Shown one piece after another: positions 1,462 to 50,657 of a stretch of DNA of 64,000 nucleotides. Under the pieces are notes generated by a model. It did not search any database, had not been told where the DNA came from, and saw only the letters and a program-made list of their open reading frames with translations. The DNA comes from Aquabacterium sp. A7-Y (GTDB lineage: Bacteria > Pseudomonadota > Gammaproteobacteria > Burkholderiales > Burkholderiaceae_C), in NCBI RefSeq assembly GCF_026153205.1, contig NZ_JAPFBW010000026.1:32315-96314 (forward strand), given 5' to 3'. The position numbers and the translations under genes were made by a program. Positions within the stretch are counted from its first letter, which is position 1. Each line of letters starts with the position of its first letter.

Positions 1462-2247
1462 ATGACGAATTCAGCATCCACTCCCGCCGCCCCGGCGGAG
1501 CGCGCGGTCCTGGTGACCGGCGGCAGCCGCGGCATCGGCCGGGCGGCCTGCGTGGCGCTCGCCGACCTGGGGCAGGTCATCTACGTCAACTATGCGCGCG
1601 ACCGTGCCGCGGCCGACGCCACCTGCGCGCTGGTGGAGCAGGCGGGCGGACGCGCCCGTCCGCTGCAGGGCGCGGTCGAGGACCCGGCCGCCGTGCAGGC
1701 CATGTTCGAGCAGATCCGTGCCGACGGCCACTGGGTCCACACTCTGGTGAACAACGCCGGCATCGTGGCGGACAACATGGCCGCAATGATGACCCTGGAG
1801 CAGTGGCGCTCGGTGCTGTCCACCAACCTGGACGGCGCCTTCCACTGCACGCGGGCAGCGCTGTCGACCATGTCGGTGCGCAAAGCCGGCAGCATCGTCA
1901 ATGTGGCGTCGGTCAGCGGCCTGCGCGCCCAGCCAGGGCAGATCAACTACGCGGCCTCCAAGGCCGGCCTGATGGCCATGACCCGCGGCCTGGCCCGCGA
2001 GATGGGCCGCTACGGCGTGCGCGTCAACGCGGTGGCGCCGGGCTTCATCGAGACCGACATGCTGGAGAGCGTCAAGAGCAGCGAGCGCGGCCAGGCCATG
2101 CTCGACGAGGCCCTGAAACAGCAGGCCGCCCTGCGCCGCGCCGGCAAGCCCAAGGAGGTGGCCTCGGTCATCCGCTTCCTGTGCTCCCCCGCATCCAGCT
2201 ACGTCACCGGCCAGACGATCGTGGTCGATGGAGGTCTCAGTGTCTGA
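1462..2247 (+). CDS. fabG: 3-oxoacyl-ACP reductase (SDR family, FabG-like)
   Basis: [10 protein letters not shown] glycine-rich motif and NNAG; catalytic YAASKAG. About 260 aa. Confidence 0.85.
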
Positions 2248-4318
2248 TCTGCGCGATTTGCCCCTCGATATGCGGCCCCTGCTGCACCGGCTCTTCCAGC
2301 CCATCCGCATCAACCGCCTGGAGCTGCGCAACCGCAGCATGATGAGCTCCATCCACCTCAACCTGGAGGAGTTTCCGGACCAGTTCGAGCGCATGGCGCA
2401 TTTCTACCGGCTGCGCGCCCGCCATGGCGCCGGCCTGATCGTGACCTCGGGTTGCGCGCCCGACGTGGCCGGCGCCTTCGCCAAGGACGGCTTCTCGCTG
2501 AAGTCCGATGCCGAGCTGCCGGCGCACCGCCTGCTGACCGAGGCCGTGCATGCCGAGGGCGGCCACATCGCGCTGCAGATCATGCACTTCGGCCGCGAGG
2601 CCGTGCACGGGCACCTGGTCTCGGCCTCGCCGCTGAAGCTGGCCTCCAGCATCTTCTCGCCGCGCCAGATGGAGGAGGAGGAAATCCTGACCCTGATCGG
2701 CGCCTATGCCGACTGCGCACAGCGCGCCATCGAGGCGGGCTACGACGCCATCGAGCTGATCTACTCGCAGGGCTTCCTGATCCACCAGTTCCTGGCGCGC
2801 GGCACCAACCAGCGCGAGGACCGCTGGGGCGGCTCTCTGGAGAACCGCATGCGCCTGGCGATCGAGGTGGCCAAGGCCGTGCGGGAGCGGGTGGGGCCGG
2901 ACTATCCGGTGATCTTCCGCATCCCCTGCATGGACCTGTTCGAGGGCGGCCTGGACACCGAGGAGGCCTTGGCCCTGATCGAGGCCCTGCTGCCCTACGG
3001 CATCGACCTGCTCAGCGTCAGCATCGGCTGGCACGACTCCTACGTGCCCACGATCGCGATGACCGCGCCGCGGGCCGCCTTCGCCACCGCCACGCGTCTG
3101 GTGCGCCAGCGCTTCCCGGCGCTGAAGCTGTGCGCCAGCAACCGCATCAACGACCCGCGCGTGGCCGAGTCCCTGCTGCTGGACGGCAGCGCCGACATGG
3201 TGGCCATGGCACGCCCCTTCCTGGCGGATGCGGCCTTCATGGACAAGGCCCTGCGCAACGACTTCGACGGCATCAACCCCTGCATCGCCTGCAACCAGAA
3301 CTGCCTGGACTACGTCTTCGCGGGCCAGCCGGTGGGCTGCAGCACCAATCCGCAGTCGGTGCGTCCGGAGGAGGGCCACTACGCCCCCCTGGCGCAGGCG
3401 GTGGACGTGGCCGTGGTGGGCGGCGGCATCGGGGGCATGGCGGCCGCGCTGTTCCTGCGCCGCCGCGGGGCGCGCGTGACCCTGTTCGAGTCCTCGCAGG
3501 CCCTGGGCGGCCAGCTGCTGATGGCGGGCGAGATCCCGGACAAGCGCGAGTTCGCCGGCACCGTGCGCTACTACGGCCAGGCACTGCGGCGCGAGGGCGT
3601 GGAGGTGCTGCTGGGACGCGCCTTCCAGCCCGCCGACGCCCAGCGCTTCGGCCACGTGGTGGTGGCCACCGGCTGCGCGCCGCGCCTGCCCCAGGACCTG
3701 CCGGGCACCGACCTGCCTCATGTGCGCCAGTACAGCGATGTGCTGGCCCAGCAGCTGCCGGTGCTGCCGCCGGTGGTCATCATCGGCGGCGGCGGCGTGG
3801 CCTGCGACATGGCCAAGTACGTCAAGAAGCGCCACGACGAGCGCGAGCACGAGGCCTGGCAGTACCTGAGCAGCCGGGCCGAGCCCGGGAGCCTGCAGGC
3901 CTTCGCCGCCCCCGAGGCGTCCAGTGCCGCGCCGGTGACCCTGGTGCAGCGCAGCAGCCGCAAGTTCGCCATGCGCCTGGGCCGCACCACGCGCTGGATC
4001 CAGATCAAGGACCTGCAGCGTCTGGGCGTCGTGATGCGCAACCGGCTGGAGATCCAGGAGATCACCGCCGAGGGCGTGCGCATCCTGGACAAGAAGACCC
4101 AAGCCGTCGAGCTGCTGCCGGCCCGCACCGTGATCCTGGCCGCCGGCCACCAGCCGCGCAGCGAGCTGGTGCAGGCCCTGGTCGAGCGCGAGGTGCCGCA
4201 CAGCGTGATCGGCTCGACGGCGCTGGAGGCCGACGAGCGGGCAGTGACCAACATCAGCTCGGTCATCGCCTCCGCCTACGAGTTCGCGATGGCCTTCGGG
4301 AACGCCGCGCATGGATGA
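2228..4318 (+). CDS. 2,4-dienoyl-CoA reductase-like NADH:flavin oxidoreductase (OYE TIM barrel, 4Fe-4S motif, FAD/NAD(P)-binding domain)
   Basis: OYE-like N-terminus, [10 protein letters not shown] Fe-S motif and [14 protein letters not shown] dinucleotide fold. This is the FadH architecture. The start is uncertain (ATG 2228 overlapping fabG, or ATG 2273). Confidence 0.75.
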
Positions 4319-5231
4319 GACCCTGCCGCAGGGCCTGTGGCGCCTGCCATGGCCCCGCCTGCGCCGCGCGCTGACCGTGGCCGCCCTGCACCTGCACCAG
4401 TTCCTGTGGCTGGGGGTCTTCCTCGTCCCCTTCCAGCTGGGGCTGCTGCTGGCAGCCCTGGTGCTGGGCATGGTGCTGGTGATCGGCGTGGAGATGGGCC
4501 ACCACCGCTACTTCTCGCACCGCAGCTTCCGCGTCGGGCGCGGCTTCCAGTGCGTGATCGCGCTGTGGGCCTCGGCCTCCTTCGAGCGCGGCATCCTGTG
4601 GTGGGCCAGCATGCACCGCCTGCACCACCGCCATTCGGACACGCCCCTGGACCCGCACACGCCCCTGCGCCGCGCGGGCGGCGGCTTCCTGCATGCCTAC
4701 CTGCGCTGGGCTGTGCACCCGCGCAATGCCGAGCCGGACTACCGCCTCGTCAAGGACCTGCTGGCCTATCCCGAGCTGCGCTTCATCGGCCAGTTCCCCT
4801 ATCTGGTCAGCGCCGCCTATGCGGGTCTGGCCTGGGGCCTGGGCGCCGCGGGCTGGGTGGGCAGCTCGGGCCTGCAGACCTGGGTTTGGCTCTATGCCAT
4901 GCCGGTCACGCTGTGCCAGCAGATCATCTCCGCCCAGGCCACGCTGGCCCACGGCGTGCCGCGGCTGCCGGGGTCCTACCAGCCCCTGCCCTGCAAGGAC
5001 GCCTCGCTCAACCACCGCTGGCTGGGCCTGATCTCCACCGGCGGCGGCTTCCATAACAACCACCACCACTTTCCCAGCTCGGCACGGCTGGGTCTGCGGC
5101 CCGGCGAGTGGGACATCAGCTACGGCGCCATCCTGCTGTTCAAGCGCCTGGGCCTGGTGCACTCGATCAACGTGCCACAACGGGCGCTCGACTACGGCCG
5201 CACCGGCCGCATCGGCACCGACCGATCTTGA
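4311..5231 (+). CDS. membrane fatty-acid desaturase (histidine-box di-iron family)
   Basis: His boxes HRYFSH, HRLHHRHSD and HNNHHHFP, plus TM helices. ATGGATGA start/stop overlap with the upstream gene. Confidence 0.8.
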   Translation: MDETLPQGLWRLPWPRLRRALTVAALHLHQFLWLGVFLVPFQLGLLLAALVLGMVLVIGVEMGHHRYFSHRSFRVGRGFQCVIALWASASFERGILWWASMHRLHHRHSDTPLDPHTPLRRAGGGFLHAYLRWAVHPRNAEPDYRLVKDLLAYPELRFIGQFPYLVSAAYAGLAWGLGAAGWVGSSGLQTWVWLYAMPVTLCQQIISAQATLAHGVPRLPGSYQPLPCKDASLNHRWLGLISTGGGFHNNHHHFPSSARLGLRPGEWDISYGAILLFKRLGLVHSINVPQRALDYGRTGRIGTDRS

Positions 5232-5242
5232 GGAGCAGACAG

Positions 5243-6091
5243 ATGTACGAAGAAGGCCGCGCCTACCCGGTTCGCAAGCTGTCCCTGGATCTGCATGCGC
5301 CCGCCCGGCGCCTGTGGTTCGGCGGCGATGCGTTCCGGACCCACTGGTTCAACTCCCTCTCCCAGGGCCTGCCGCTGGCGGAACGTTATGCCTCGGACTG
5401 TGTCAAGGCAGCCATGGCCCATGTCGACGATCCCGAGCTGCTGGAGCGCAGCCGCGACTTCGTCGGCCAGGAGGCCACGCACAGCTTCCTGCACCGCCAG
5501 TGCAACGAGCAGCTGGAGGCCATGGGCCTGCACTACTGGCTCGACGGCTACACGGCCTGGCGCATGAGCAAGGCCCACTGGCTCAGCTGGCGCAGCGGCC
5601 TGGCCCTGACGGTGGCCTGGGAGCACTTCACCACCATCCTGTGCGAGCACACCCTGGCGCATTCCGGCATCGAGTCCGAGGCCGACGAGCCCTACCGGTC
5701 CCTGTGGATGTGGCACTGCGCCGAAGAACTGGAGCATTCGGCCCTCTCGCACGACCTCTACCTCGCCTGCCGAGGGTCCTATCTGCGCATGCTGCTGATC
5801 TACCTGTATGGATCCATGCTCTTCGTGACGGACTTCCTCACCCAGGCCTTCTTCAACATCTACCAGGACGGGCAGCTGTTCAAGCTGGCGACCTGGCGTG
5901 ACGTCGCGCGCTACTTCCTGGGCCGCAAGGGCCTGTTCTGGTATGCGCTGCCGCGCTGGCTGGGATTCCTGCGCCCGGGCTTCCGGACGCCGCGCGGCCA
6001 GCATGCCGCCCTGATCGATGCGGCGCTGGGCGCGCTCAAGGAGCGCCTGCGCATCATCCCCAAGGCCCATGCACAGCGCAGCGCCGCTTGA
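5243..6091 (+). CDS. PF10118-type predicted metal-dependent hydrolase
   Basis: Matches my recollection of the family pattern (FRTHWFNSLS...GQEATHS...WHCAEELEHS). GAGGAG RBS 6 nt upstream of ATG 5243. Confidence 0.65.
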   Translation: MYEEGRAYPVRKLSLDLHAPARRLWFGGDAFRTHWFNSLSQGLPLAERYASDCVKAAMAHVDDPELLERSRDFVGQEATHSFLHRQCNEQLEAMGLHYWLDGYTAWRMSKAHWLSWRSGLALTVAWEHFTTILCEHTLAHSGIESEADEPYRSLWMWHCAEELEHSALSHDLYLACRGSYLRMLLIYLYGSMLFVTDFLTQAFFNIYQDGQLFKLATWRDVARYFLGRKGLFWYALPRWLGFLRPGFRTPRGQHAALIDAALGALKERLRIIPKAHAQRSAA

Positions 6092-30474: not shown

Positions 30475-30550
30475 GCGGATATAGCTCAGCAGGCAGCGCC
30501 CGGTCACGCCATGGCCGAGGCCCCGAGTTCGATGCCCGGTATCCGCTCCA
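30475..30550 (+). tRNA. degenerate tRNA-like element (cloverleaf with GCC anticodon, C33, one mismatch in the D stem and one in the T stem, CCA encoded); probable tRNA pseudogene
   Basis: Hand-folded: acceptor GCGGATA/TATCCGC, D arm GCTC..GCGC, anticodon stem CGGTC/GGCCG with loop ACGCCAT, T loop TTCGATG. Confidence 0.4.
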
Positions 30551-30644
30551 TGACATCTCATTGCGGGTGTGTTCCGGTGCGCTTGCGCAGCGAGAGCACT
30601 TCACGGCCGGGAACCGCGGTCGTGCTGGAGCACAGCCGCAATGA

Positions 30645-30848
30645 AATCGCGACCCCCACGTCGACGAGCACGTGTTCCGCTTCGCGCAGCACTGGGCGGA
30701 CACCTGGTGCTCGAACCCGGCGTTCTGGCTCGAGGTGGCCGACACGCCAAACGGATTGAAGCTTCTGGAGATCAACGCCATCAACTCCAGTGGCTTCTAC
30801 GCCTGCGACATGGGGAAGTTCGTGAACGCCATCAATGCCCTGGTCTGA
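30645..30848 (+). pseudogene. C-terminal gene remnant (about 67 codons, no start), ATP-grasp-like C-terminus
   Basis: Frame-0 translation ...FWLEVADTPNGLKLLEINAINSSGFYACDMGKFVNAINALV* with an in-frame stop immediately upstream. Confidence 0.3.
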
Positions 30849-31061
30849 AGGAGCCGTCCGTGCGCTCTTTCCTGCCTGCGGCGGGTATGCCGAAGGAATC
30901 GCGCCTCAGTGGATGCACTGCAGGCGCTCATGAATCTGCTGTGGAAGGCGATCGCTCACAGGCCAGGGGCTCGGGCTGATGCTCTGCCCCGCCGGTGTGC
31001 GGTGTCCGGACCGCAAGTCTGTCGTCGCCGCACATGCCGCGCCGCCGGAAGCAGCCGATAC

Positions 31062-31113
31062 GGGTCATCGAGGGTTCGCACTGCAAGGTGCCGGGTTCGA
31101 CTCCCGGATGACC
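31062..31113 (+). other. tRNA 3'-half-like fragment (T arm GCCGGGTTCGACTCCCGG flanked by GGTCATC/GATGACC)
   Basis: Read directly. Does not form a complete cloverleaf. Confidence 0.3.
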
Positions 31114-31117
31114 GAAA

Positions 31118-31190
31118 GCTTGGATAGCTCAGTGGGTAGAGCAACGCACACCTCATGCGTCTGTCACGGGTTCGACTCCCGTTCCAAACC
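31118..31190 (+). tRNA. degenerate tRNA-like element (perfect D and T arms; anticodon loop CACCTCA with A33; acceptor mismatch; no CCA); probable pseudogene
   Basis: Hand-folded: GCTTGGA-TA-GCTCAGTGGGTAGAGC-A-ACGCA/CACCTCA/TGCGT-CTGTC-ACGGGTTCGACTCCCGT-TCCAAAC. Confidence 0.4.
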
Positions 31191-39311: not shown

Positions 39312-40655
39312 TCATCGCAAGGTCAAGCTCAAGAACTCGACCCCTTGCTTCCGGGACGATGCCATGTCGAAACGGGACAGGGTCGACTGCCCCAGTAGCG
39401 AGGCACAGTCCTCGCACACCACGGCGGCAACGTTCTTCAGCTCGAAGGGCCCCAGCCGGACCGACTCGAGCACCACCGCGTCCGCAGTCACCTTGCGACC
39501 ATCGGCCGTCCGCATTTCGACACGTGGCCTCGAGACCCGCCACACCACGTCCGCAGCCTCCAGGTCGGCCGTGCTGAACGTTGTCGTGGTCGCCCCGGTA
39601 TCCACCATGAAGGGTTTGGGCCGGGAGCGGCCCAGACTGAGCGGCGCGAAATAGTGGCCGGCATGGATGGGCAATCGAAGCACCGGCTGCTCGGCGGTGT
39701 CGGTCGGCGCCTCACGCTCCAACAGGCTTTCAATACCGAGTCGCTGGGCCGCGAAGTAGCCGGGCCGCCCTTTGGCTTCTCTGGCGGCATCGAAGGCCTG
39801 CAGGAGAGACAGTGCTTCGTAGTGCCGCTTCCGTGAAACCAGCAGTTTGGCAAGCTGACCCCTGACATCGACCAGGGTCGGCGCCACGGAAAGCGTCTTG
39901 TAGGACCAGTCGATCGCCTCGTCCGTGCGGCCCGACTTCGCGAGGCTGTCGGCGTAGTACGCGAACAGCTGCGGCGCCCCTTCCCCGAGTTCCAGCGCGC
40001 GCTCGAACTCGGCGGTGGCCTCGCCATACCGGTTCAGCCTGCTTAGCGCGACACCAAGGCGGAACCGGCCGGCACCGTCTTGCGGGTGGGTGGCGGCATA
40101 GCGCCGCCACAAGCTTTCCACGCATTCCGCATCACCGTGCCGCCAGCACTCCTGGGCCCGCTCGTCCAGCTCGTCGAAGCTCAGCCGCTCGGCGTTCGCC
40201 TGGACCACATAGTGTGCATAACCCCGCACGCCCACATAGGTCAGAGTCGGCAGCAGGAGCAGAGCCAGGCAGGTGAAGAGGAACACCTTGAACCGTCCCC
40301 TCTGGGTCGGTCGCGAGCTCCACAAGCTGTATGCACCGGCCAGAAGCATCGGCCAGATGAAGCTGCCGACCACCGCACCGGCGGCCTCCGCCCCTCCTCC
40401 GCCGCGTTGCAGGACAAGGGCGGCATTGACGCCGGCGCAGGCAAGGAAGGCCAGTAAAGCGCCGCCGCGGAGCCACGGTCCGGCGCGGGTCTCTTCGGGA
40501 CTGCTTCCGCGCAGGAAGCTGATGTCCCGGGCAGCAAAGTCGGAGGGATCAGCGGCGAAGCCGACAGGTTCTTGTCGCTCGTACGACAGCTGGTGGACCT
40601 TTGTGATGGACCAGGGCGTCCGAGATGCACCGACTGCCGCACCCGCCGCTTTCAT
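39312..40655 (-). CDS. TPR-repeat protein with C-terminal retropepsin-like (clan AA) aspartic protease domain and N-terminal TM
   Basis: DTGATTT active-site motif in the C-domain. TPR-like helices in the middle. AGAGGG RBS. Confidence 0.6.
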   Translation of the reverse strand: MKAAGAAVGASRTPWSITKVHQLSYERQEPVGFAADPSDFAARDISFLRGSSPEETRAGPWLRGGALLAFLACAGVNAALVLQRGGGGAEAAGAVVGSFIWPMLLAGAYSLWSSRPTQRGRFKVFLFTCLALLLLPTLTYVGVRGYAHYVVQANAERLSFDELDERAQECWRHGDAECVESLWRRYAATHPQDGAGRFRLGVALSRLNRYGEATAEFERALELGEGAPQLFAYYADSLAKSGRTDEAIDWSYKTLSVAPTLVDVRGQLAKLLVSRKRHYEALSLLQAFDAAREAKGRPGYFAAQRLGIESLLEREAPTDTAEQPVLRLPIHAGHYFAPLSLGRSRPKPFMVDTGATTTTFSTADLEAADVVWRVSRPRVEMRTADGRKVTADAVVLESVRLGPFELKNVAAVVCEDCASLLGQSTLSRFDMASSRKQGVEFLSLTLR

Positions 40656-40969
40656 TTGTGCCCGACACCCTCTTGTCTTGGAGAGTTTAAGGCTCGGCGC
40701 TCGTCCGGCGGACGGCATCGCGAGAGGGTTGCCGGGCGCTGTCTACTTTTCCTCGCTGGCGACGCTGCCCCCACCGAGATTCGCCTGCCGGCGGGCGCCT
40801 TTGGCCCCCCTCCAAACGGGGGAGTCGCCCCTCGGGCGAGATACCTGTTCGCTAAACTGCCCTCGGGACGATGTCTCCATGCACCCGCACTCGTCAGTAC
40901 AAACAGCGCGGTGAGGCTAACGGGTCAGGTCCCTCGACCAAACAATAATTTCGTGGAAAGGGAGTCAGC

Positions 40970-41710
40970 ATGTCGATACAGGCACCAACCAGGACAGGTT
41001 TCGAAAAATGGCAGGACGGCCTCGCGCGCGCCGTCGGCGACGCCAAGTGGAATGCGTACGACTGTGAAGTCGAGATGGCCGTCGGCGAGTTCAACCGGCA
41101 TCTCGGCGGCACATCGGGCTACCGCCCTCTGGATTGGCAGCTGATCAAAGCGATGTTATGGACCGAGAGCGGTGCCGAGCACGCGGAGTGGAAAGTCAAA
41201 CCGATGCAGATCGGCGTAGCCGGCGATCCCGGCCTGATGGCGCTTCTCTCGGGGAAAGAAGGTGGCGAGCTGATCATCCCGCCGACTTGGAGCGGGCTCC
41301 TCACCGCCGGCTCGGTGAGATCGATGCCTTCCCACAATATCCGCGCCGGGATCGCCTACCTGCTCATGCGCATGGCGAACTTCGAGCACAAGAGCGTCGC
41401 TGCTGAAGACGGGCAGATCCACGAAGTCACGGTCAAAGCAGGCGACAGTTTCGACAAGATCGCCAAGGCCCAGGGGACCACGATCGACGTACTGAAACAG
41501 TTGAACCCTTCCGGCAGTGTCCTTCGGGTGGGCCAGGTTCTGAAGTACAAGAAGGCATCGGTCCGGCGCGTCATCACCGGGTGGCGGCATATCAACACGG
41601 CCTCCATTGCACAACGGTATAACGGCGGCGGCGACCCCAACTACGCTAAGAAACTGGACTACGCATTGACTCTGATCCGGAAAGGAAAAGCTGCAGCATG
41701 TCCCCAATGA
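40970..41710 (+). CDS. lytic-transglycosylase/lysozyme-like domain plus LysM peptidoglycan-binding domain protein
   Basis: MLWTESG catalytic-Glu context. LysM motif (VTVKAGDSFDKIAKAQGTTIDVLKQLNP...VGQVLKY). Confidence 0.55.
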   Translation: MSIQAPTRTGFEKWQDGLARAVGDAKWNAYDCEVEMAVGEFNRHLGGTSGYRPLDWQLIKAMLWTESGAEHAEWKVKPMQIGVAGDPGLMALLSGKEGGELIIPPTWSGLLTAGSVRSMPSHNIRAGIAYLLMRMANFEHKSVAAEDGQIHEVTVKAGDSFDKIAKAQGTTIDVLKQLNPSGSVLRVGQVLKYKKASVRRVITGWRHINTASIAQRYNGGGDPNYAKKLDYALTLIRKGKAAACPQ

Positions 41711-42144
41711 AATCTCTCACGCTGGCCTTTTTTCTCGGCATGCCGGTGCTCGGAACCGCGTTTGCGGGGGAGCGCCAGGAGGCTTCCGCAGCACTTGAGG
41801 AATGCGGCGCCCATCCTCAGGCGGGCATGCGTGAATGCCTGCAGCAGAAGGCCCGTGACAGTGAAGCAGCGTTGAAACGGGCCGAGGAAAACGCGTCCCA
41901 GACCATTTCCAAATGGGACGAAGACGCGAAGTATGTCGCCAAGGCCAGGAGCACCTTGAAGGCGTCGAACAAGGCCTTTTCTCAATACCGGGAAGCGCAC
42001 TGTGCCCACGTCGCGACGCTCGCCGGAGGGGCCGCCGGCAACGCGCTTGAGATGCGCCGCCTCGCTTGCGTGTTGGAGCTGAACGGCGGCAGGGCCCGGC
42101 AGCTCTCTGACACGACAAGCGAATTGCCGTTGAAAGGGCAATAG
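41698..42144 (+). CDS. LprI-family (DUF1311) lysozyme-inhibitor-like periplasmic protein
   Basis: Signal peptide. Conserved Cys pairs and the W...AQ..W..YR.A.C pattern. Overlaps the upstream gene by 13 nt. Confidence 0.55.
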   Translation: MSPMKSLTLAFFLGMPVLGTAFAGERQEASAALEECGAHPQAGMRECLQQKARDSEAALKRAEENASQTISKWDEDAKYVAKARSTLKASNKAFSQYREAHCAHVATLAGGAAGNALEMRRLACVLELNGGRARQLSDTTSELPLKGQ

Positions 42145-42163: not shown

Positions 42164-42463
42164 TCAGGCCTCCTGACCCTGCACGGCCAGGCGTCGCTCG
42201 TTGGCGGCGGCGATCATTTTCTGCACGCCGAACACCCCGATCAAGCCGACGGGTACAAACACACCGAAGCCGATGAAGGCCATCACAGCGAACAGCTTCA
42301 TGCGGGTGGCTGCATAGCCCAGCGTGCCGATCAGGCTCAGCAACAGAAAGCCAAGCAATACCACCATCAAGCCGCCCCGAAAGCTGTCTGAAATGTCGTT
42401 CCGTGCCAAAAACGACGCCGATACCATGAGGTTGATGATGACGGAGACGATGGCTTGAGTCAT
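42164..42463 (-). CDS. small membrane protein
   Basis: Three hydrophobic helices. Internal Met chosen as start. Confidence 0.35.
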   Translation of the reverse strand: MTQAIVSVIINLMVSASFLARNDISDSFRGGLMVVLLGFLLLSLIGTLGYAATRMKLFAVMAFIGFGVFVPVGLIGVFGVQKMIAAANERRLAVQGQEA

Positions 42464-42649
42464 GGCGATCTGCTGCGGCTTACGGTTGGGCAGGTGTGGG
42501 TCGGTGCGGGCTGCTCGTAGGAGCAACCCTTCTGTAGAGGCCGCATTGTCTGGGGCTGGATCGCGGTTCGACACCACCTATTGAAGGGGCTTCCCCCTGT
42601 TTGGGGGCTTCAGCGCCGGGTCGCTGCGTGCCGGGAACACGGTCGGAGA

Positions 42650-43396
42650 TCAGTGCGGCCGTATCAGGCCCCGGGCACGGAGCTCGGCAAGCACGGAGGC
42701 GACGACAGCATCGCAACGACCGCCGGCGAACGCATACAGTTCCGTCGCCACGCGGCCCACGTCGGCCCCGAGCAGGTTCCGCAGCATCGAGCGGACGCGC
42801 AGGTAGCGGGTCTTTACGACGTCCGGACTCACCTGCAGCGCCGACGCCGTTTCCTCCACGGTCATTTCCTGCACGGCGCGCAGCATGAACAGGCTCCGGT
42901 AGAGCGCCGGCAGCTGGTCGATGGCACGCTGCAGGAACTCGCGAGCTTGCGCCTGGGAGGCCGGGGTTTCCGGCGATGAAGTGTCGGAAGGAAGTTCTGC
43001 CATCGGGTCCTCCGCCAGATGTTCTGCGTCGAGCGGCGCCTCTGTCTCGTCGAGTTGCACCAGCCGGCTCTGCTTGCGCTGCAGGCTCAAGGCCCCATTG
43101 ATCGCGATGCGCGCCACCCAGGTCGACAAGGCCGCCTCGCCCCGGTAGGTCTGCATCGAGGCGAAGGCACGCAGGTAGGCTTCCTGCACCACGTCCTGCG
43201 CGTCGGCGTCGTCATTGACGATGCCGCGTGCCGTCCTGAACATCAGGCGGTTGTAGCGCCGCATGATCGCTTCGAAGGCAGAGGCGTCGCCGGTCAAGAC
43301 GGCCGCCACGAGGTCGAGGTCGCTGCGAGCATCGGGGATGCGCCGGGCCGCCACGCCGGCGGCCGGGTCCATCCTGGGGTACAACTGTTCTGACAT
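42650..43396 (-). CDS. ECF-type sigma-70 family RNA polymerase sigma factor with C-terminal extension
   Basis: Region 2 (DVVQEAYLRAF) and region 4 (MTVEETASALQVSPDVVKTRYLRVR) are both present. Confidence 0.8.
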   Translation of the reverse strand: MSEQLYPRMDPAAGVAARRIPDARSDLDLVAAVLTGDASAFEAIMRRYNRLMFRTARGIVNDDADAQDVVQEAYLRAFASMQTYRGEAALSTWVARIAINGALSLQRKQSRLVQLDETEAPLDAEHLAEDPMAELPSDTSSPETPASQAQAREFLQRAIDQLPALYRSLFMLRAVQEMTVEETASALQVSPDVVKTRYLRVRSMLRNLLGADVGRVATELYAFAGGRCDAVVASVLAELRARGLIRPH

Positions 43397-43472
43397 GAAC
43401 GAAAGGCTCTAGGTATCTCTGCTTGAGCGCAGGCGGCACGAAAAGGTGACAAGGGCCGCACTGGCGTGTCCG

Positions 43473-45056
43473 TCAATAGCCGTGGAAGCCCTCGGTGTGG
43501 ATGTCGGCGCTCGCGATGCCGATCCGACCCAATGCATTCTGCACGTCCGCCACCATCGCAGGCGAGCCGACGATGTAGAAAACCGGCGAGGACAGAGGTC
43601 CGCACAGCCGTTCGAGCAAACGTTCGTCGACGCGACCCGACAGTCCCTGCCATCCGTCCTGCAGCGCCGACGGATCGGACATCGTGGCGAACAAGCGGAA
43701 GTCGGGGCACCTGGCTTGCAGTGCTTGCAACTCGTCCAGGAAGGCGGCGTCCTCGGGCCTTCGGCTGGCGTAGATCAGGGTCACCGGAGAGGCCGGGCGC
43801 TCCAGCTGGGCCTGCCGCAACATGCTGACGAAGGGTGCGATGCCGATCCCGCCCGCGATGAACACCGTCTGGCGGGCCTCCGGGTCGCGCAGGGTGAGCC
43901 CGCCGAACGGGCCTTCGAGGCTCACTGAGCGACCGACAGGCAAGGCAGCGAGCGCGCGCTTGAACGGCGTCTCGCGCATCCGGGTGGCGATGACCAGCTC
44001 GGACTCGTGCGGGGCGCTGACCAGCGAGAAGGCGTGCCGCATCGCCGCCTGGCCGTCGCCGCTCGCAGGGGGCAGGACCAGGTTGATGGCCTGTCCGGCC
44101 ACGAAGTGGAATTCGTGCGGCCGCTCGAAGTGGAAGGCCAGCGTGTCCCGCGCGACAGCTTCCTTGCGGAGCAGACGGACCGCCTGCGCGCCGGTCCTGA
44201 GGGCTGTCGCGGCGCTGCTGGTGCTGCGGGACGGCGAGCGATGTGCAGCGTGCGGGTCGCCGGGACGGACGATGCGGGCGTAGGCGGAGTGGTTGTGGAT
44301 GGACTCGAAGTTCTCCACTTCGACTGTGTAGGCCCCGATGCGCAGATCCTGGTTGAGCGCCAAGGCCAGGTCGCGGACGATGTCCTCGGCGAACTTCGGG
44401 TTCTCGTAGGCCCGTTCGGTGACATGCTTTTCGTCGACCCGCTTCAGCAGCCCGTAGACCTCGCAGGAGGCGCTTCGCTCGGCGATGAGGATCAACTCTT
44501 CGATGAACATCGGCCCGTGCAGCTCGACGTCCAGCGTGAGGTGCGAACGCTGGTTGTGGGCCCCGTAGGCCGAGATCTCCTTGGAGCAGGGGCACAAGCT
44601 CGTTGCCGGCACCACCACACGCATCGAGAAGCGGTAGTCCCCTGAAGGCGCGAGCCGGCCCCGCCATGCCACCTGGTAGTCCAGGCGACTCTGCACGCCG
44701 GACACCGGTGCGGCCTTGGTCACGAAATACGGAAAGCGAAGCTCCACTTCGCCGCCCGGAGCATCGAGCCGGCCGAGCATGTCCCGCACCAGCATCTCGA
44801 AGGACGCCGGGTCCAGCACCTCGGGCCCGGCCTCCAGCAGCTCCAGAAACCGGGACATGTGGGTACCCTTGGTGGACGCCCCGAGCGCGACCGCCATCGA
44901 GAACTCGCCAACCGTCGGCTGGGCCGTACCGCCCCGGCTGGCGATCCGCAGCGGGTAACGCACGCCTTTGACGCCCACGGCATCGATGGGCAAGCTGCGC
45001 TTGTCCGGGCTGGCTTGAATGTCTGGCAGGAGGGTGAGGCGCTCGGGGGCGTTCAT
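43473..45056 (-). CDS. fusion protein: GTP cyclohydrolase FolE2/MptA domain plus ferredoxin-NADP-reductase-like FAD/NAD(P)-binding oxidoreductase domain
   Basis: N-half resembles FolE2 (…LCPCSKEIS…). C-half has RHAFSLVS (RxYS-like) and GGIGIAPF motifs. Confidence 0.65.
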   Translation of the reverse strand: MNAPERLTLLPDIQASPDKRSLPIDAVGVKGVRYPLRIASRGGTAQPTVGEFSMAVALGASTKGTHMSRFLELLEAGPEVLDPASFEMLVRDMLGRLDAPGGEVELRFPYFVTKAAPVSGVQSRLDYQVAWRGRLAPSGDYRFSMRVVVPATSLCPCSKEISAYGAHNQRSHLTLDVELHGPMFIEELILIAERSASCEVYGLLKRVDEKHVTERAYENPKFAEDIVRDLALALNQDLRIGAYTVEVENFESIHNHSAYARIVRPGDPHAAHRSPSRSTSSAATALRTGAQAVRLLRKEAVARDTLAFHFERPHEFHFVAGQAINLVLPPASGDGQAAMRHAFSLVSAPHESELVIATRMRETPFKRALAALPVGRSVSLEGPFGGLTLRDPEARQTVFIAGGIGIAPFVSMLRQAQLERPASPVTLIYASRRPEDAAFLDELQALQARCPDFRLFATMSDPSALQDGWQGLSGRVDERLLERLCGPLSSPVFYIVGSPAMVADVQNALGRIGIASADIHTEGFHGY

Positions 45057-45597
45057 GACGGCTGTGTCCTGGGTTCAGTGAAGGGCTTGTCCTCCTGTTA
45101 GACGCGGTGGCCGGCAAAAGGTGACAGGGGTCGGCGTGTAGGCTGCGGTGGCCCGGGCTGCCGTCTACAACGAGCTGCTATAGGTCCGGGCATGAACCTG
45201 CAGCATGAACGCATCGTCAGCCGATGCGGCGCAAACGTCCATCGAAGCGGCGGCTTCTCTTCCAGAACTTCCGCAGCGAGTACGAGCAAAGGGATGCACT
45301 CTCGCGGTGGTGGCACAACAATCAGCTGGAAGGCTCGGCTCGATTCGGCGGAGGTCCGAGCCGAGTTCTCGAAGACGGTTGGGCAGCTGATGATAAGCAG
45401 CGTCCTTCAGTCGATGGCCTGACTCAAGCCACCCTTTCCTATCTGGCTGAGCTCCTTGTCAATATCTGCGCGACCCGCACTATGCTCGTTTGCGGCACCG
45501 CCCGTAAGCCCGCCTTACAACATGCACGCACTCAGGGGGTGGCGGGGTGCGACCGCGCCGTTAGCATGCGCACACATAACAGCCCTGGGAGGGCGCC

Positions 45598-46079
45598 ATG
45601 TCGGACTACGAACACGAAGCAGCGAAGCCAGCCGTGCCTCATTGCAAGGGCGCAGCGCTGTCGCTCCGCTTCAACGGCGACTACCTGATGCTGAGCGGCA
45701 AGAAGACCTACATCTTCCCCGCCGTCTCAGGCAAGCCGGACAAGGCCGGTCACTTTTCGAACACTGTTGAGCGCCAGAAGCAGAAGGGCATCGGCCTCAC
45801 CCCAAGGGGGAATGCTGGGTCAATTTCCAGGAGCTGTGGGAGAACGCCTGATACAAGCGCGGGCCATACGCCGGGTGGGGCAACTTCCGCATCACAATCC
45901 ACAAGTTCCCCGCCACCGAGACGTATGGCCGCGGTGGCTTCTTCCTTCATGGGGGCGCCGTTCCTGGGAGCGCCGGCTGCATCGACTTGAACAACCGGAT
46001 CGACGATTTCGTCGCGGCAATGCGCGAAGAACTGGAAGGCGAGAAGCAGTGCTACATCTCCCTCTCCGTCTACTACTGA
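45598..46079 (+). pseudogene. tlde1/DUF2778-like (T6SS L,D-transpeptidase effector family) gene with a frameshift and an in-frame TGA
   Basis: N-part in frame 1 (…YIFPAVSGKPDKAGH…). C-part in frame 0 (…GGFFLHGGAVPGSAGCIDLN…). The frame switches near a C4/G5 run around 45800-45810. TGA at about 45849. Confidence 0.55.
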
Positions 46080-46085
46080 GCAAAG

Positions 46086-46337
46086 ATGGGTAGCAAGATT
46101 ATTGCCGCTATTGCCGCCATTGCCGCCCTAGGGGTCGCCGGCTTCGACGTGTACGTCACCTACATCAACCTGGTGGAAGCCTATGGCAGTGGCCCGCCCT
46201 ACTACGGCATGACGGAGAACATGGACAAGTGGGCCAGCCCGGTTGGCTTCTTGCTCATGTTCAACGCAGTCGCGCTCGTTCTCGTGTACGTGCTCGGCCG
46301 TTTGGCCTGGAAGCTGTGGAAGAAGCAGCCGTCGTAA
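46086..46337 (+). CDS. small two-TM membrane protein
   Basis: 83 aa ORF immediately after the tlde1-like pseudogene. Confidence 0.4.
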   Translation: MGSKIIAAIAAIAALGVAGFDVYVTYINLVEAYGSGPPYYGMTENMDKWASPVGFLLMFNAVALVLVYVLGRLAWKLWKKQPS

Positions 46338-47024: not shown

Positions 47025-48271
<1,247 letters not shown>

Positions 48272-48677: not shown

Positions 48678-50657
48678 GTGAGCCGTCTCTCCCGGTACCG
48701 TGCCGATTGCGGCGCGACGACACGCCTTGTTTTTATGCACCTGCCAGCCGCTGTCCGGACCTGCCACCGCGTGGCGATCCGCCTTACACGTTCGCATGCG
48801 GGCAAGCCGCATCCGGCCATCGCCAGCCTGCGCGCTGCGCTGCTGTGGCTGCTGGCCTGGCTCGCGACCGTGGCCGTCTCGGCGGCCTGCGCCCAACCGG
48901 TGGAGCTGTCGGCCTCCCGGGTCGGGACGCTGCTCGGCCAGGAGCTGCGCTACCTGGAGGACCCGGACGGGCGGCTCGACCTGGCGGCGGTCCGGGCCCG
49001 CGCCGACAGCATGCGGCCCAGCGAGCAGGCGGTGCCCAACTTCGGATACACCCGGACGACCTACTGGTTCCATGTGCGCTTGGTCAACCGCGACCCCCTG
49101 GTGACGCGCTGGTTGCTGGAAGCCCAGTACCCGCAGCTGGACGACGTGAGCTTCTACGCGCTGCGTGGCGACACGGTGGTCACCGCGTCGCGGGCCGGGC
49201 GGCTGTTTCCCTTCGGCCAACGCCAGGTCGAACACCGCAACCTGATCTACCCGCTCGAACTGGCCGAGGGCGAGGCGGTCGACATCTACCTGCGAGTCCA
49301 TACCCAGAGCTCGCTGCAGCTGCCGCTGCTGCTGAGCACGCCCGCCGCCTTGTTCACGCGCGACCTGAAAGTGCAACTCGCCCTCGGGCTCCTCTACGGC
49401 GTGCTGGTCGCGATGCTGGTGTTCAACCTGCTGGCCTACGTGCAGATCCGCCACCGGAGCTATCTGCACTACATGCAGTTCACCGGGAGCTATATGTTCT
49501 GCCAGCTGGCCATCAACGGGCTGGCGTTCCAATACCTGTGGCCCGACGCGCCGCGCTGGGCCGCCACGGCGCTGCCGGTTTTCGTCTGCATGTCGCTCGT
49601 GGGCATGCTCAACTTCAGCCGCTCCTTCCTCGATCTCGCGCATTGCCTGCCGAGGACGGACCGGCTGATGCGCGCGTATGCGCTCGCGCTGCTGCTGCTG
49701 GCCCTGGCGGCGCTGGTCACGCCTTACCGCATCGCCATCACGCTGGCGACGGTCAACGCCTTTTTCGTGTCCCTCGGCGTGTTCGCCGTCGCCGTCGTCG
49801 CCGTGTCGCGCGGCCTCAAGCAGGCGCGCTATTTCATGCTCGCGTGGGCCGCGCCGCTCGTCGGCATCGGGCTGTACCCGCTCAAGACCTTCGGCCTGCT
49901 GCCCAGCAACGTCCTGACCGAGTACGGGCTGCAGATCGGCTCCGCGGTCGAGGCGCTGCTGCTGTCGGCCGCCCTGCTGGACCGCATGAAGATCCTGAAG
50001 GAACAGAACGAACGCATCGAGGCCGATGCGCGACGCGACCTGGAGCAACGCGTGGCACAGCGCACCGAAGAGCTGAACGGCGCGCTGCGCGAGCTGTCGG
50101 ATGCCAACGCCGTGCTGCAGCAGATGAACGTGCTCGACGGTTTGACCGGGGTGAAGAACCGCAAGCATTTCGACGAGCGGCTGGACAGCGAATTGAAGAG
50201 CCAGGCCCGGACGGGCCGGCCGCTGTCGCTGCTACTGATCGACATCGACCACTTCAAGTCCGTCAACGACACGCACGGCCACCTGGCCGGAGATGCTTGC
50301 CTGCGCGCGGTCGCCGGGGCCATTGCGGCCTCTTTGTTCCGCCCGGGCGACGAGGTCTCGCGCTATGGTGGCGAGGAATTCGCGGTGGTGCTCCCCGAGA
50401 CGCCGGCGCCGGGCGCGGCGGCTCTGGCAGAGCGGATCCGCTCTGCGGTCGAGCAACTGCAGCTGCACTGGGAGCAGGGAGAGCGGATTCCGCTGACGGT
50501 CAGCATCGGCGTCGCCCAAGCGAAGCCCGGACAAGGCGCGGTCCCGCTGATCGCGACGGCTGACGCCCAGCTCTATCGCGCCAAGCACGAGGGCCGCAAC
50601 TGCGTCCGGACGGCGTCGGGCGAGGCGGGCGGCGTGGTGGTGCCGCTGCCGCGTTGA
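48678..50657 (+). CDS. diguanylate cyclase with 7TMR-DISM extracellular and 7TM sensor domains (GGDEF)
   Basis: Periplasmic domain, 7 TM helices, coiled coil, GGDEF domain with GGEEF. Start uncertain (48678 or 48735). Confidence 0.8.
   Translation: MSRLSRYRADCGATTRLVFMHLPAAVRTCHRVAIRLTRSHAGKPHPAIASLRAALLWLLAWLATVAVSAACAQPVELSASRVGTLLGQELRYLEDPDGRLDLAAVRARADSMRPSEQAVPNFGYTRTTYWFHVRLVNRDPLVTRWLLEAQYPQLDDVSFYALRGDTVVTASRAGRLFPFGQRQVEHRNLIYPLELAEGEAVDIYLRVHTQSSLQLPLLLSTPAALFTRDLKVQLALGLLYGVLVAMLVFNLLAYVQIRHRSYLHYMQFTGSYMFCQLAINGLAFQYLWPDAPRWAATALPVFVCMSLVGMLNFSRSFLDLAHCLPRTDRLMRAYALALLLLALAALVTPYRIAITLATVNAFFVSLGVFAVAVVAVSRGLKQARYFMLAWAAPLVGIGLYPLKTFGLLPSNVLTEYGLQIGSAVEALLLSAALLDRMKILKEQNERIEADARRDLEQRVAQRTEELNGALRELSDANAVLQQMNVLDGLTGVKNRKHFDERLDSELKSQARTGRPLSLLLIDIDHFKSVNDTHGHLAGDACLRAVAGAIAASLFRPGDEVSRYGGEEFAVVLPETPAPGAAALAERIRSAVEQLQLHWEQGERIPLTVSIGVAQAKPGQGAVPLIATADAQLYRAKHEGRNCVRTASGEAGGVVVPLPR

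Follow-up and report, generated by a model that had tools for sequence, protein, structure and literature searches.

Known FolE2 proteins (GTP cyclohydrolase IB) are single-domain enzymes of about 260-300 amino acids, which are commonly portrayed as zinc-independent substitutes under the control of Zur. A protein of different build is encoded on the 64,000-nucleotide stretch of Aquabacterium sp. A7-Y which was analysed in this work (contig NZ_JAPFBW010000026.1, positions 32,315 to 96,314; in the following termed the window). Here, FolE2 carries an additional flavoprotein module of 240 amino acids, and the gene lies behind a candidate promoter of the extracytoplasmic function (ECF) type. The gene extends over positions 43473-45056 of the minus strand and consists of a single uninterrupted open reading frame (ORF) of 527 amino acids, in which a FolE2 half and a FAD/NAD(P)H-binding half of the ferredoxin-NADP reductase (FNR) type follow each other in the same frame. 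It is followed by a gene encoding an ECF sigma factor with the same orientation. Both the fusion and the presence of a co-oriented ECF sigma factor without an adjacent anti-sigma factor had been claimed in the initial annotation and were confirmed, the former by Pfam and NCBIfam matches to both halves of the one ORF and the latter by profile searches, in which no anti-sigma domain was detected in the adjoining ORFs. The distance of 78 nt given there for the two genes has to be corrected, as the actual gap comprises 76 nt (43397-43472). What is new is the domain architecture, both component enzyme families being already known, and no report of FolE2 fusions or of FolE2 genes associated with ECF sigma factors was found in a literature search.

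Among the described systems, the closest functional analogy is the folM-folE-folX operon of Pseudomonas, which belongs to the tetrahydromonapterin route, is light-inducible in P. mendocina and P. putida and comprises a GTP cyclohydrolase I paralogue as well as a pterin reductase (PMC9758184). In Pseudomonas, a second, stress-inducible GTP cyclohydrolase I shares its operon with a reductase for the pterin which it forms, and the likeness lies in this neighbourhood of cyclohydrolase and reductase. However, FolM is a short-chain dehydrogenase/reductase (SDR), the epimerase FolX is present and the operon is controlled by LitR/LOV with a sigma-70 promoter, whereas the unit in the window includes an FNR-type flavoprotein and an ECF sigma factor, is devoid of an epimerase and is only presumed to act in pterin reduction.

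The N-terminal 265 amino acids of the fusion protein (44262-45056, minus strand) resemble the stand-alone FolE2 enzymes of Neisseria gonorrhoeae, Burkholderia pseudomallei and Nitrosomonas europaea, including the metal-binding and catalytic residues and the expected reaction. The Pfam model PF02649 (GCHY-1) matched amino acids 10-260 with an E-value of 1.2e-87 and 294 bits (cut-off 25) and was covered completely (profile positions 1-260 of 260). The FolE2 equivalog model of NCBIfam, NF010200, reached 264.3 bits with a cut-off of 215; the scores of the models for archaeal MptA and GCH-IV stayed below their cut-offs in the NCBIfam profile search. Moreover, this half could be aligned end to end with the solved FolE2 structures PDB 2r5r, 8g6c and 3d2o (E-values of 1e-93 to 5e-83). 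In the enzyme from B. pseudomallei the metal is bound by Cys154, His166 and Glu208, and a neighbouring Cys156 as well as Glu250 and His253 are conserved (PMC11573665). All of these residues are kept in the fusion protein with an offset of +1, namely as C155, H167, E209, C157, E251 and H254. The equivalog cut-off, the three structures and the metal-binding and catalytic residues together identify the N-terminal domain as FolE2 and not as another T-fold protein, a possibility that had been considered at the outset. The FolE2 half is therefore expected, as judged from its sequence, to form 7,8-dihydroneopterin triphosphate from GTP.

The C-terminal half is composed of a flavin-binding beta-barrel subdomain (amino acids 290-392, 43881-44189, minus strand), which contains the sequence R-H-A-F-S-L-V-S-A-P, and of an NAD(P)H-binding subdomain (amino acids 393-527 and stop codon, 43473-43880, minus strand) with the motifs GGIGIAPF, Y-A-S-R-R-P and G-S-P-A-M and a C-terminal F-H-G-Y. 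The Pfam domain FAD_binding_6 was matched by amino acids 293-386 with 26.3 bits (cut-off 21.1) and NAD_binding_1 by amino acids 399-506 with an E-value of 8.5e-20. An AlphaFold2 model of the reductase half, which was based on an alignment of 71 sequences, reached a mean pLDDT of 89.5 and a pTM of 0.88 and displayed the beta-barrel and Rossmann fold of a canonical FNR module. A Foldseek search with this model detected flavohaemoglobin, cytochrome b5 reductase, NqrF, BenC, bacterial FNR and the dehydrogenase domain of SpNOX with E-values of 1e-17 to 5e-19 and TM scores of 0.74-0.86, the highest TM score among solved FNR structures being obtained for the reductase domain of flavohaemoglobin. The window protein thus shares the fold, the GGxGxxP motif and the C-terminal aromatic residue with the FNR reductases described so far (flavohaemoglobin, cytochrome b5 reductase, NqrF, BenC/MMOR, Fre, NOX/SpNOX), but its sequence is at most 27% identical to those of the solved structures and it has no iron-sulfur, haem or membrane partner domain.

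Two motifs had initially been assigned to the reductase half. GGIGIAPF is present as described, whereas RxFS did not hold: in a profile alignment the residues H-A-F-S of the flavin motif R-H-A-F-S are located opposite R-S-Y-S of the FAD domain of MMOR, which represents the classical R-x-Y-S, and the flavin motif is thus the HxF[ST] variant of NOX/FRE reductases, in which Arg is replaced by His. The concern that the C-terminal domain might have lost its flavin-binding residues could be dispelled, since the flavin and NAD(P)H motifs are kept within a canonical FNR fold. In addition, all 35 invariant columns of the alignment of the 71 family members are retained in the window, including F61, S62, G120, G121, G123, P126 and the C-terminal F-x-G-Y. 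The reductase half is consequently predicted to take electrons from NAD(P)H by means of a bound flavin. An SDR fold with the Tyr-x3-Lys motif, as in FolM/PTR1 and dihydropteridine reductase (DHPR), was not found in this FNR-type flavoprotein, and reduction of pterins by it would be a matter of functional analogy and not of family membership. The family to which it belongs consists of widespread stand-alone proteins of about 240 amino acids, which are 40-56% identical to the domain in the window and for which annotation pipelines provide only the names "ferredoxin--NADP reductase" or "FAD-dependent oxidoreductase".

The two halves are connected by a linker (amino acids 266-289, 44190-44261, minus strand), for which the comparison with a related locus, L167, was most informative. 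At L167 (and L168) the gene for the closest homologue of the sigma factor (P0393, 76% identity) is located directly downstream of a gene encoding a stand-alone FolE2 of 285 amino acids. This FolE2 is 82% identical to the window protein over 284 amino acids and the BLASTP alignment ends one residue before the stop codon of L167. At the junction, CTC-AGG in the window lies opposite CTC-TGA in L167, the latter containing the stop codon, and four codons further on the window matches the N-terminus of the stand-alone reductases without their Met. An alignment of the FolE2 tails and the reductase N-termini likewise identified the linker as the former low-complexity C-terminal tail of FolE2 which runs into the N-terminus of the reductase. 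It follows that the gene in the window combines a complete FolE2, including its tail, with a complete reductase. The reductase may have been inserted at the locus of the window or may have been lost in L167.

In the public protein record only a part of this gene is represented; the reductase part and the sigma factor each have a 100% identical entry for Aquabacterium sp. A7-Y. The NCBI annotation contains a "FAD-dependent oxidoreductase" of 266 amino acids (43473-44273), whose start MVRPGD is placed at the ATC codon of residue 262 within the 527-amino acid ORF, and no FolE2 protein is listed for the strain A7-Y; the fusion has therefore remained unrecognised. This internal ATC start and the missing FolE2 entry would also suit the assumption that the fusion is not functional and that, the genome being a draft, it goes back to an assembly or sequencing error or to a read-through which recently inactivated the gene. 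The remains of IS21 and of a LysR gene at a distance of 2 kb, as well as the decay of a related copy at the locus L002, would be in line with such an origin. However, the ORF is open over 1,581 nt in a genome with a GC content of 66%, and the GC content at third codon positions is high and equal in both halves (0.87 in the FolE2 half and 0.86 in the reductase half). Both halves retain every catalytic and invariant residue of their families, and no plausible internal start of the reductase with a ribosome-binding site is present. Furthermore, the FolE2 and reductase genes of unfused relatives are mostly arranged in different frames, so that a single missing base would shift the frame of the tail and would not result in a clean junction at the position of the L167 stop codon. 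We consider an artefact or an inactive gene very unlikely on these grounds.

The statement that FolE2 normally stands alone was borne out by a word-indexed search of 5.8 billion proteins, in which nearly all of the 120 best matches were single-domain proteins of about 290 amino acids. Among these 120 matches both domains were carried only by P0001 and P0014, a count which is soft since the same search missed the FolE2 of L167 with its 82% identity. An exhaustive scan of 1.84 billion protein cluster representatives yielded no fused representative; P0001 is grouped under an unfused one, and fused members can thus hide inside clusters of unfused proteins. P0001 is encoded at the locus L001 by a full fused ORF of 526 amino acids. 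In phylogenetic trees both halves group with the unfused pair of locus L086 (75% and 79% identity) and stand apart from the window, which would mean that the two fusions arose independently. We do not rely on it as a second independent fusion, as the contig has a long-read-like character, the neighbouring RoxA-like gene is split and an ATG of the reductase is available in frame. An ancestral fusion was likewise rejected for P0014 (L002 8522-9607, L003 5041-6126), a chimera of 361 amino acids which arose by an in-frame deletion and in which FolE2 is joined at about residue 245 to the reductase at about residue 65, so that the latter is present from its S-A-P motif onward, and the ligand Cys is lost by replacement with Tyr. 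The chimera is situated between a RoxA-like cytochrome gene and an operon for a sigma factor, DUF4439 and a cytochrome c. The window is hence the only secure fused example, and as a fusion the gene is almost certainly confined to this strain.

The association of a GTP cyclohydrolase with this type of reductase is found in other genomes as well. When species-representative genomes and metagenomes were scanned with the reductase domain, 166 loci were obtained, 133 of which included enough upstream sequence for evaluation. In 16 of these 133 loci, corresponding to 10 distinct ones, FolE2 was encoded immediately upstream of the reductase on the same strand, e.g., in Noviherbaspirillum massiliense and in several metagenome-assembled genomes of Burkholderiales and Chromatiales. 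The stop codon of FolE2 and the start codon of the reductase overlapped as ATGA in seven of the ten distinct loci. Directly ahead of the reductase, the canonical FolE (PF01227, E-value 1e-40) is encoded in place of FolE2 in Thiomonas bhubaneswarensis (L023) and Comamonas phosphati (L038). FolE and FolE2 have unrelated folds and have only their reaction in common. Their interchange next to the reductase indicates that the latter is tied to GTP cyclohydrolase I activity or its product and not to one particular protein, and it represents the strongest argument for a link between reductase and cyclohydrolase. FolE2 and the reductase probably work together, and the translationally coupled pairs and the replacement of FolE2 by FolE in two genomes lend comparative support to a coupling of pterin synthesis and redox chemistry, as had been proposed from the fusion. 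In our preferred reading the fusion protein would accomplish a pterin-linked redox step, combining the sigma factor-induced synthesis of dihydroneopterin triphosphate with the NAD(P)H-dependent reduction of a pterin; we give it about an even chance of being correct. A zinc-sparing role of FolE2 under the control of Zur was considered too and is contradicted by the zinc-dependent FolE in the same slot of L023 and L038.

The reductase might alternatively service the cyclohydrolase itself, either by keeping the Cys-ligated Mn/Fe site reduced or by supplying reduced metal under oxidative or nitrosative stress. A fusion would be expected for such a dedicated partner protein, and solved FolE2 structures display the metal-binding Cys as sulfinate and the neighbouring conserved Cys as S-nitrosothiol (PMC11573665), both residues being kept in the window as C155 and C157. 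On the other hand, the same reductase family pairs with FolE, which has another fold and a zinc site, and the shared product is a likelier target than two unrelated sites; most of the reductase genes, moreover, occur without a nearby cyclohydrolase. A reduction of sulfinates or nitrosothiols is not known for FNR-type flavoproteins. Maintenance of the cyclohydrolase is thus regarded as unlikely.

Candidate regulatory sequences are shared by the fusion gene and the sigma factor gene downstream. A candidate ECF-type promoter of the fusion gene is located at 45098-45126 (minus strand) and is composed of TGTCACCTTTT (45126-45116), a spacer of 11 nt and CGTCTAA (45104-45098). A second one, the candidate promoter of the sigma factor gene, lies within the 76-nt gap at 43423-43451 (minus strand) and comprises the same element (43451-43441), 11 nt and CGCTCAA (43429-43423). 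The exact 11-mer has two occurrences in the 64 kb of the window, one ahead of each gene and each on the minus strand, and a search for GTCAC-N15-19-TCTAA revealed one occurrence in the window with 0.06 expected. A motif resembling TGTCACCTTTT-N11-CGTCTAA was also detected upstream of FolE2 and of the sigma factor gene in L167, and upstream of the sigma factor gene in L169-L172, which encode four further sigma homologues with identities of 58-77%. Its position upstream of the sigma factor genes of the window, L167 and L169-L172 characterises it as the putative autoregulatory promoter of this sigma subfamily, and we infer that the promoters of the window are recognised by the sigma factor encoded downstream. 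Neither a sigma-70-like promoter nor an intrinsic terminator-like site was found between the fusion and the sigma factor genes. With a promoter copy of its own and no terminator in between, expression of the sigma factor would not simply depend on read-through from the fusion gene. No other promoter copies are present in the window, and no Rfam match to a riboswitch or another RNA was obtained for the region upstream of the fusion gene.

Most of the reductase loci adjoin genes of a sister sigma subfamily, which is about 43% identical and whose putative promoter reads GGAACG-N16-CATCTAA. The pattern GGAACG-N14-18-CATC[TC]AA was matched 110 times in 1.84 Mb, compared to 12-20 matches in shuffled sequences. 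It was found upstream of FolE2 in L006, L084, L098, L099, L111 and L112 and upstream of FolE in L023. Further genes preceded by a motif of this type were those of the sigma factor, of the reductase alone (many loci), of a RoxA-like dihaem cytochrome c, of a C92 amidase-like protein and of DUF4439. Homologues of RoxA-like proteins, DUF4439, cytochrome c, superoxide dismutase (SOD) or FolE were not detected in the window.

The sigma factor itself (42650-43396, minus strand) consists of 248 amino acids with the domains Sigma70_r2 and r4_2 and matched the NCBIfam model NF008888 (PRK11922) with 256.5 bits (cut-off 204) over profile positions 11-228 of 231, tail included. A sigma-2 domain is followed by a disordered linker, a sigma-4 domain and a conserved C-terminal tail of about 35 amino acids (approximately 214-248). 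The tail contains the invariant motif F-x-G-x-R-C-D (F223, G225, R227, C228, D229), which is kept in every member of both subfamilies. AlphaFold2 placed a helix at residues 226-241 of the tail; with a pTM of 0.51 the domain arrangement of this model is unreliable and no docking of the tail is claimed. Anti-sigma-like ORFs were neither present next to the sigma factor in the window nor recurrent among the clustered neighbours of related loci, and the entire sigma family is characterised by the lack of an anti-sigma neighbour. ECF sigma factors which have no anti-sigma factor and possess regulatory C-terminal extensions are described as a class in PMC3426412 and PMC8999054. ECF41/42-type and CorE-like Cys-rich sigma factors resemble the sigma factor of the window in having a core with a C-terminal extension, no adjacent anti-sigma factor and an autoregulatory promoter. 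The extension in the window, by contrast, comprises only about 35 amino acids with a single invariant Cys and is neither a SnoaL/NTF2-like nor a Cys-rich metal-binding domain. No numbered ECF group was matched to the NF008888 family, and the paper on the re-classification of ECF sigma factors is silent on these neighbours in its main text. A group assignment by way of EcfQ and EcfF from Bradyrhizobium was rejected, both belonging to other groups.

In the usual operon of the family the sigma factor gene is followed by genes for a periplasmic ferritin-like DUF4439 protein and a cytochrome c, sometimes with a RoxA-like cytochrome thereafter. A second sigma factor of the NF008888 family (P0392), which is 80% identical and has the RCD tail too, is encoded on another contig of A7-Y, which measures 242 kb. 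The FolE2-linked L167 and the DUF4439/cytochrome c-linked L172 suggest that such sigma paralogue pairs are usual in this clade.

Taken together, a course of events can be proposed for the preferred reading, a pterin-linked redox step. The stop codon of FolE2 has been lost in this strain and the reductase has no start of its own, so that the two are joined in a single polypeptide. The sigma factor would be activated, probably by oxidative or redox stress, with the invariant Cys-containing C-terminal tail as the likely on-board control element. The active sigma factor would then transcribe the fusion gene from its ECF-type promoter and regulate itself by means of its own promoter copy. Extra GTP cyclohydrolase I would thus be formed with the reductase in a fixed 1:1 proportion, and the reductase would pass electrons from NAD(P)H through its flavin, so that the pterin formed, or one of its derivatives, stays reduced; this reduced pterin could serve as a redox-active pool or as a cofactor. 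In this scheme, the stress that acts as inducer, the compound turned over by the reductase and the function of the tail are deduced from sequence and gene context, and the same holds for any action of the reductase on a pterin. E. coli flavohaemoglobin was reportedly first purified as a dihydropteridine reductase, which provides a lead but not a test. A wider proposal states that cyclohydrolase, whether FolE2 or FolE, and the 240-amino acid FNR reductase constitute an undescribed bacterial NAD(P)H:pterin redox system, in which the reductase is dedicated to the product of a stress-induced cyclohydrolase, that the system is switched on by the ECF sigma factor, which has no anti-sigma partner and senses stress with the single invariant Cys of its tail, and that the fusion is the Rosetta-stone form of this partnership. 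This extension is put forward tentatively and is less probable than the pterin-linked step as such.

Several observations weigh against a pterin-linked function. The connection of the reductase family with pterins is based on gene context. FNR-type enzymes usually transfer electrons to proteins, flavins or metals, and the known 7,8-dihydropterin reductases are SDR or dihydrofolate reductase (DHFR) enzymes. About 115 of the 133 evaluated reductase loci have no adjacent GTP cyclohydrolase, indicating that the reductase has a role which needs no dedicated partner, and among the genes recurring near the pairs none encoding PTPS, PCD, FolX or FolB was seen. The reductase half in the window is placed on a long branch, is at most 56% identical to any relative and departs from the family at eight of 88 columns with a conservation of at least 90%, mostly conservatively; the family median is two departures and the window marks the top of the range. 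In the nearest relative, L167, FolE2 is followed by the sigma factor without any reductase. The fusion in L001 could be an assembly frameshift error, P0014 lacks catalytic residues and derives from the decay of a gene pair instead of being a working fusion, and the fusion may be unique to the strain A7-Y. With regard to regulation, the -10 element of the sigma factor gene's promoter (CGCTCAA) is weaker and degenerate, and it is motif conservation that points to a recognition of the promoters by the sigma factor.

Genes recurring near the cyclohydrolase-reductase pairs encode Fe/Mn SOD, DUF488, a protein of the uracil-DNA glycosylase (UDG) superfamily, 5-formyltetrahydrofolate (5-formyl-THF) cyclo-ligase, nitronate monooxygenase and VIT1. 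The cyclo-ligase is encoded in the pair clusters of L086 (3050-3643), L096 (3235-4020) and L101 (1724-2500), together with DUF488, UDG-superfamily and SOD genes, and these neighbours hint at a folate or DNA-damage side of the regulon. It is conceivable, therefore, that the two activities are co-regulated and chemically independent. The reductase would in this case be a general stress reductase for flavin, ferric iron, quinone or a protein acceptor, the cyclohydrolase would raise the folate or pterin supply and the fusion would be a neutral accident, in which the stop codon between overlapping genes was lost and this was tolerated since both halves still fold. A regulon mixing SOD, UDG-superfamily, DUF488, 5-formyl-THF cyclo-ligase, VIT1, haem and ferritin-like genes resembles a general stress set, the cyclo-ligase in three loci points to folate and not to free pterin, and a nearly unique fusion with no fused close relative would be compatible with an accident, as would the predominance of reductase loci without any GTP cyclohydrolase. 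However, the ATGA coupling in seven distinct loci and the occurrence of FolE in the exact slot of FolE2 exceed a loose co-regulation, and at several loci the promoter serves the two-gene unit and nothing else. Independent functions of the two halves are thus possible but appear doubtful to us.

Downstream of the sigma factor gene a small predicted membrane protein of 137 amino acids is encoded at 42164-42577 (minus strand; 99 amino acids from an ATG at 42463). It displayed only sub-threshold Pfam similarities (DUF5690, DUF7010), no NCBIfam match and no cluster shared with any related locus, and its membership in the sigma unit is doubtful. As the missing anti-sigma factor this ORF was rejected, because it has neither an anti-sigma domain nor a counterpart in related loci. 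Further away, a TPR-containing membrane protein that also has a retropepsin-like aspartyl protease domain (39312-40718, minus strand), a LysM protein (40970-41710, plus strand) and an LprI-family lysozyme-inhibitor-like protein (41698-42144, plus strand) are encoded, which appear to be unrelated to the fusion-sigma unit.

On the upstream side (45224-46337) the ORFs 45224-45688, 45598-45990 and 45767-46093 gave no Pfam match, the latter two possibly representing one frameshifted gene, and a hydrophobic ORF of 83 amino acids is located at 46086-46337; nothing in this region resembled the neighbours in related loci. Two overlapping ORFs at 47104-47823 and 47145-47636 (both minus strand), each matching a part of PF01695, represent a frameshifted remnant of an IS21 IstB gene. 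It is abutted by a LysR gene of which only the substrate-binding domain is present (47627-48271, plus strand), and the fusion-sigma unit is accordingly situated about 2 kb from the scar of a mobile element. A diguanylate cyclase with 7TMR-DISM and GGDEF domains is encoded at 48678-50657, and about 570 nt separate the genes for tRNA-Gly(GCC) and tRNA-Arg(CCT) within 30475-31190. At L167 a JmjC/Cupin_8 protein and two fatty-acid desaturases, which are di-iron enzymes of the membrane (PF00487), are encoded on the same strand ahead of FolE2 (2086-5879).

FolE2 has so far been viewed as a stand-alone, metal-flexible substitute of FolE and as an antibiotic target. The conserved coupling with a flavin reductase suggests a second role of GTP cyclohydrolase I in the stress response, and in the window this partnership of cyclohydrolase and reductase is hard-wired in one polypeptide and provided with a dedicated ECF sigma factor. 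Homology-guided annotation split the gene and thereby hid the fusion from the protein databases. The fusion draws attention to a functional pairing that is conserved and has so far gone undescribed, as well as to an uncharacterised ECF regulon, which can now be outlined as comprising the sigma factor, DUF4439, cytochrome c, the RoxA-like dihaem cytochrome and the reductase with or without a GTP cyclohydrolase, including two clear promoter consensus sequences and a candidate on-board cysteine sensor. For the widespread and unnamed family of "ferredoxin-NADP reductase-like" proteins of about 240 amino acids it offers a first functional handle.

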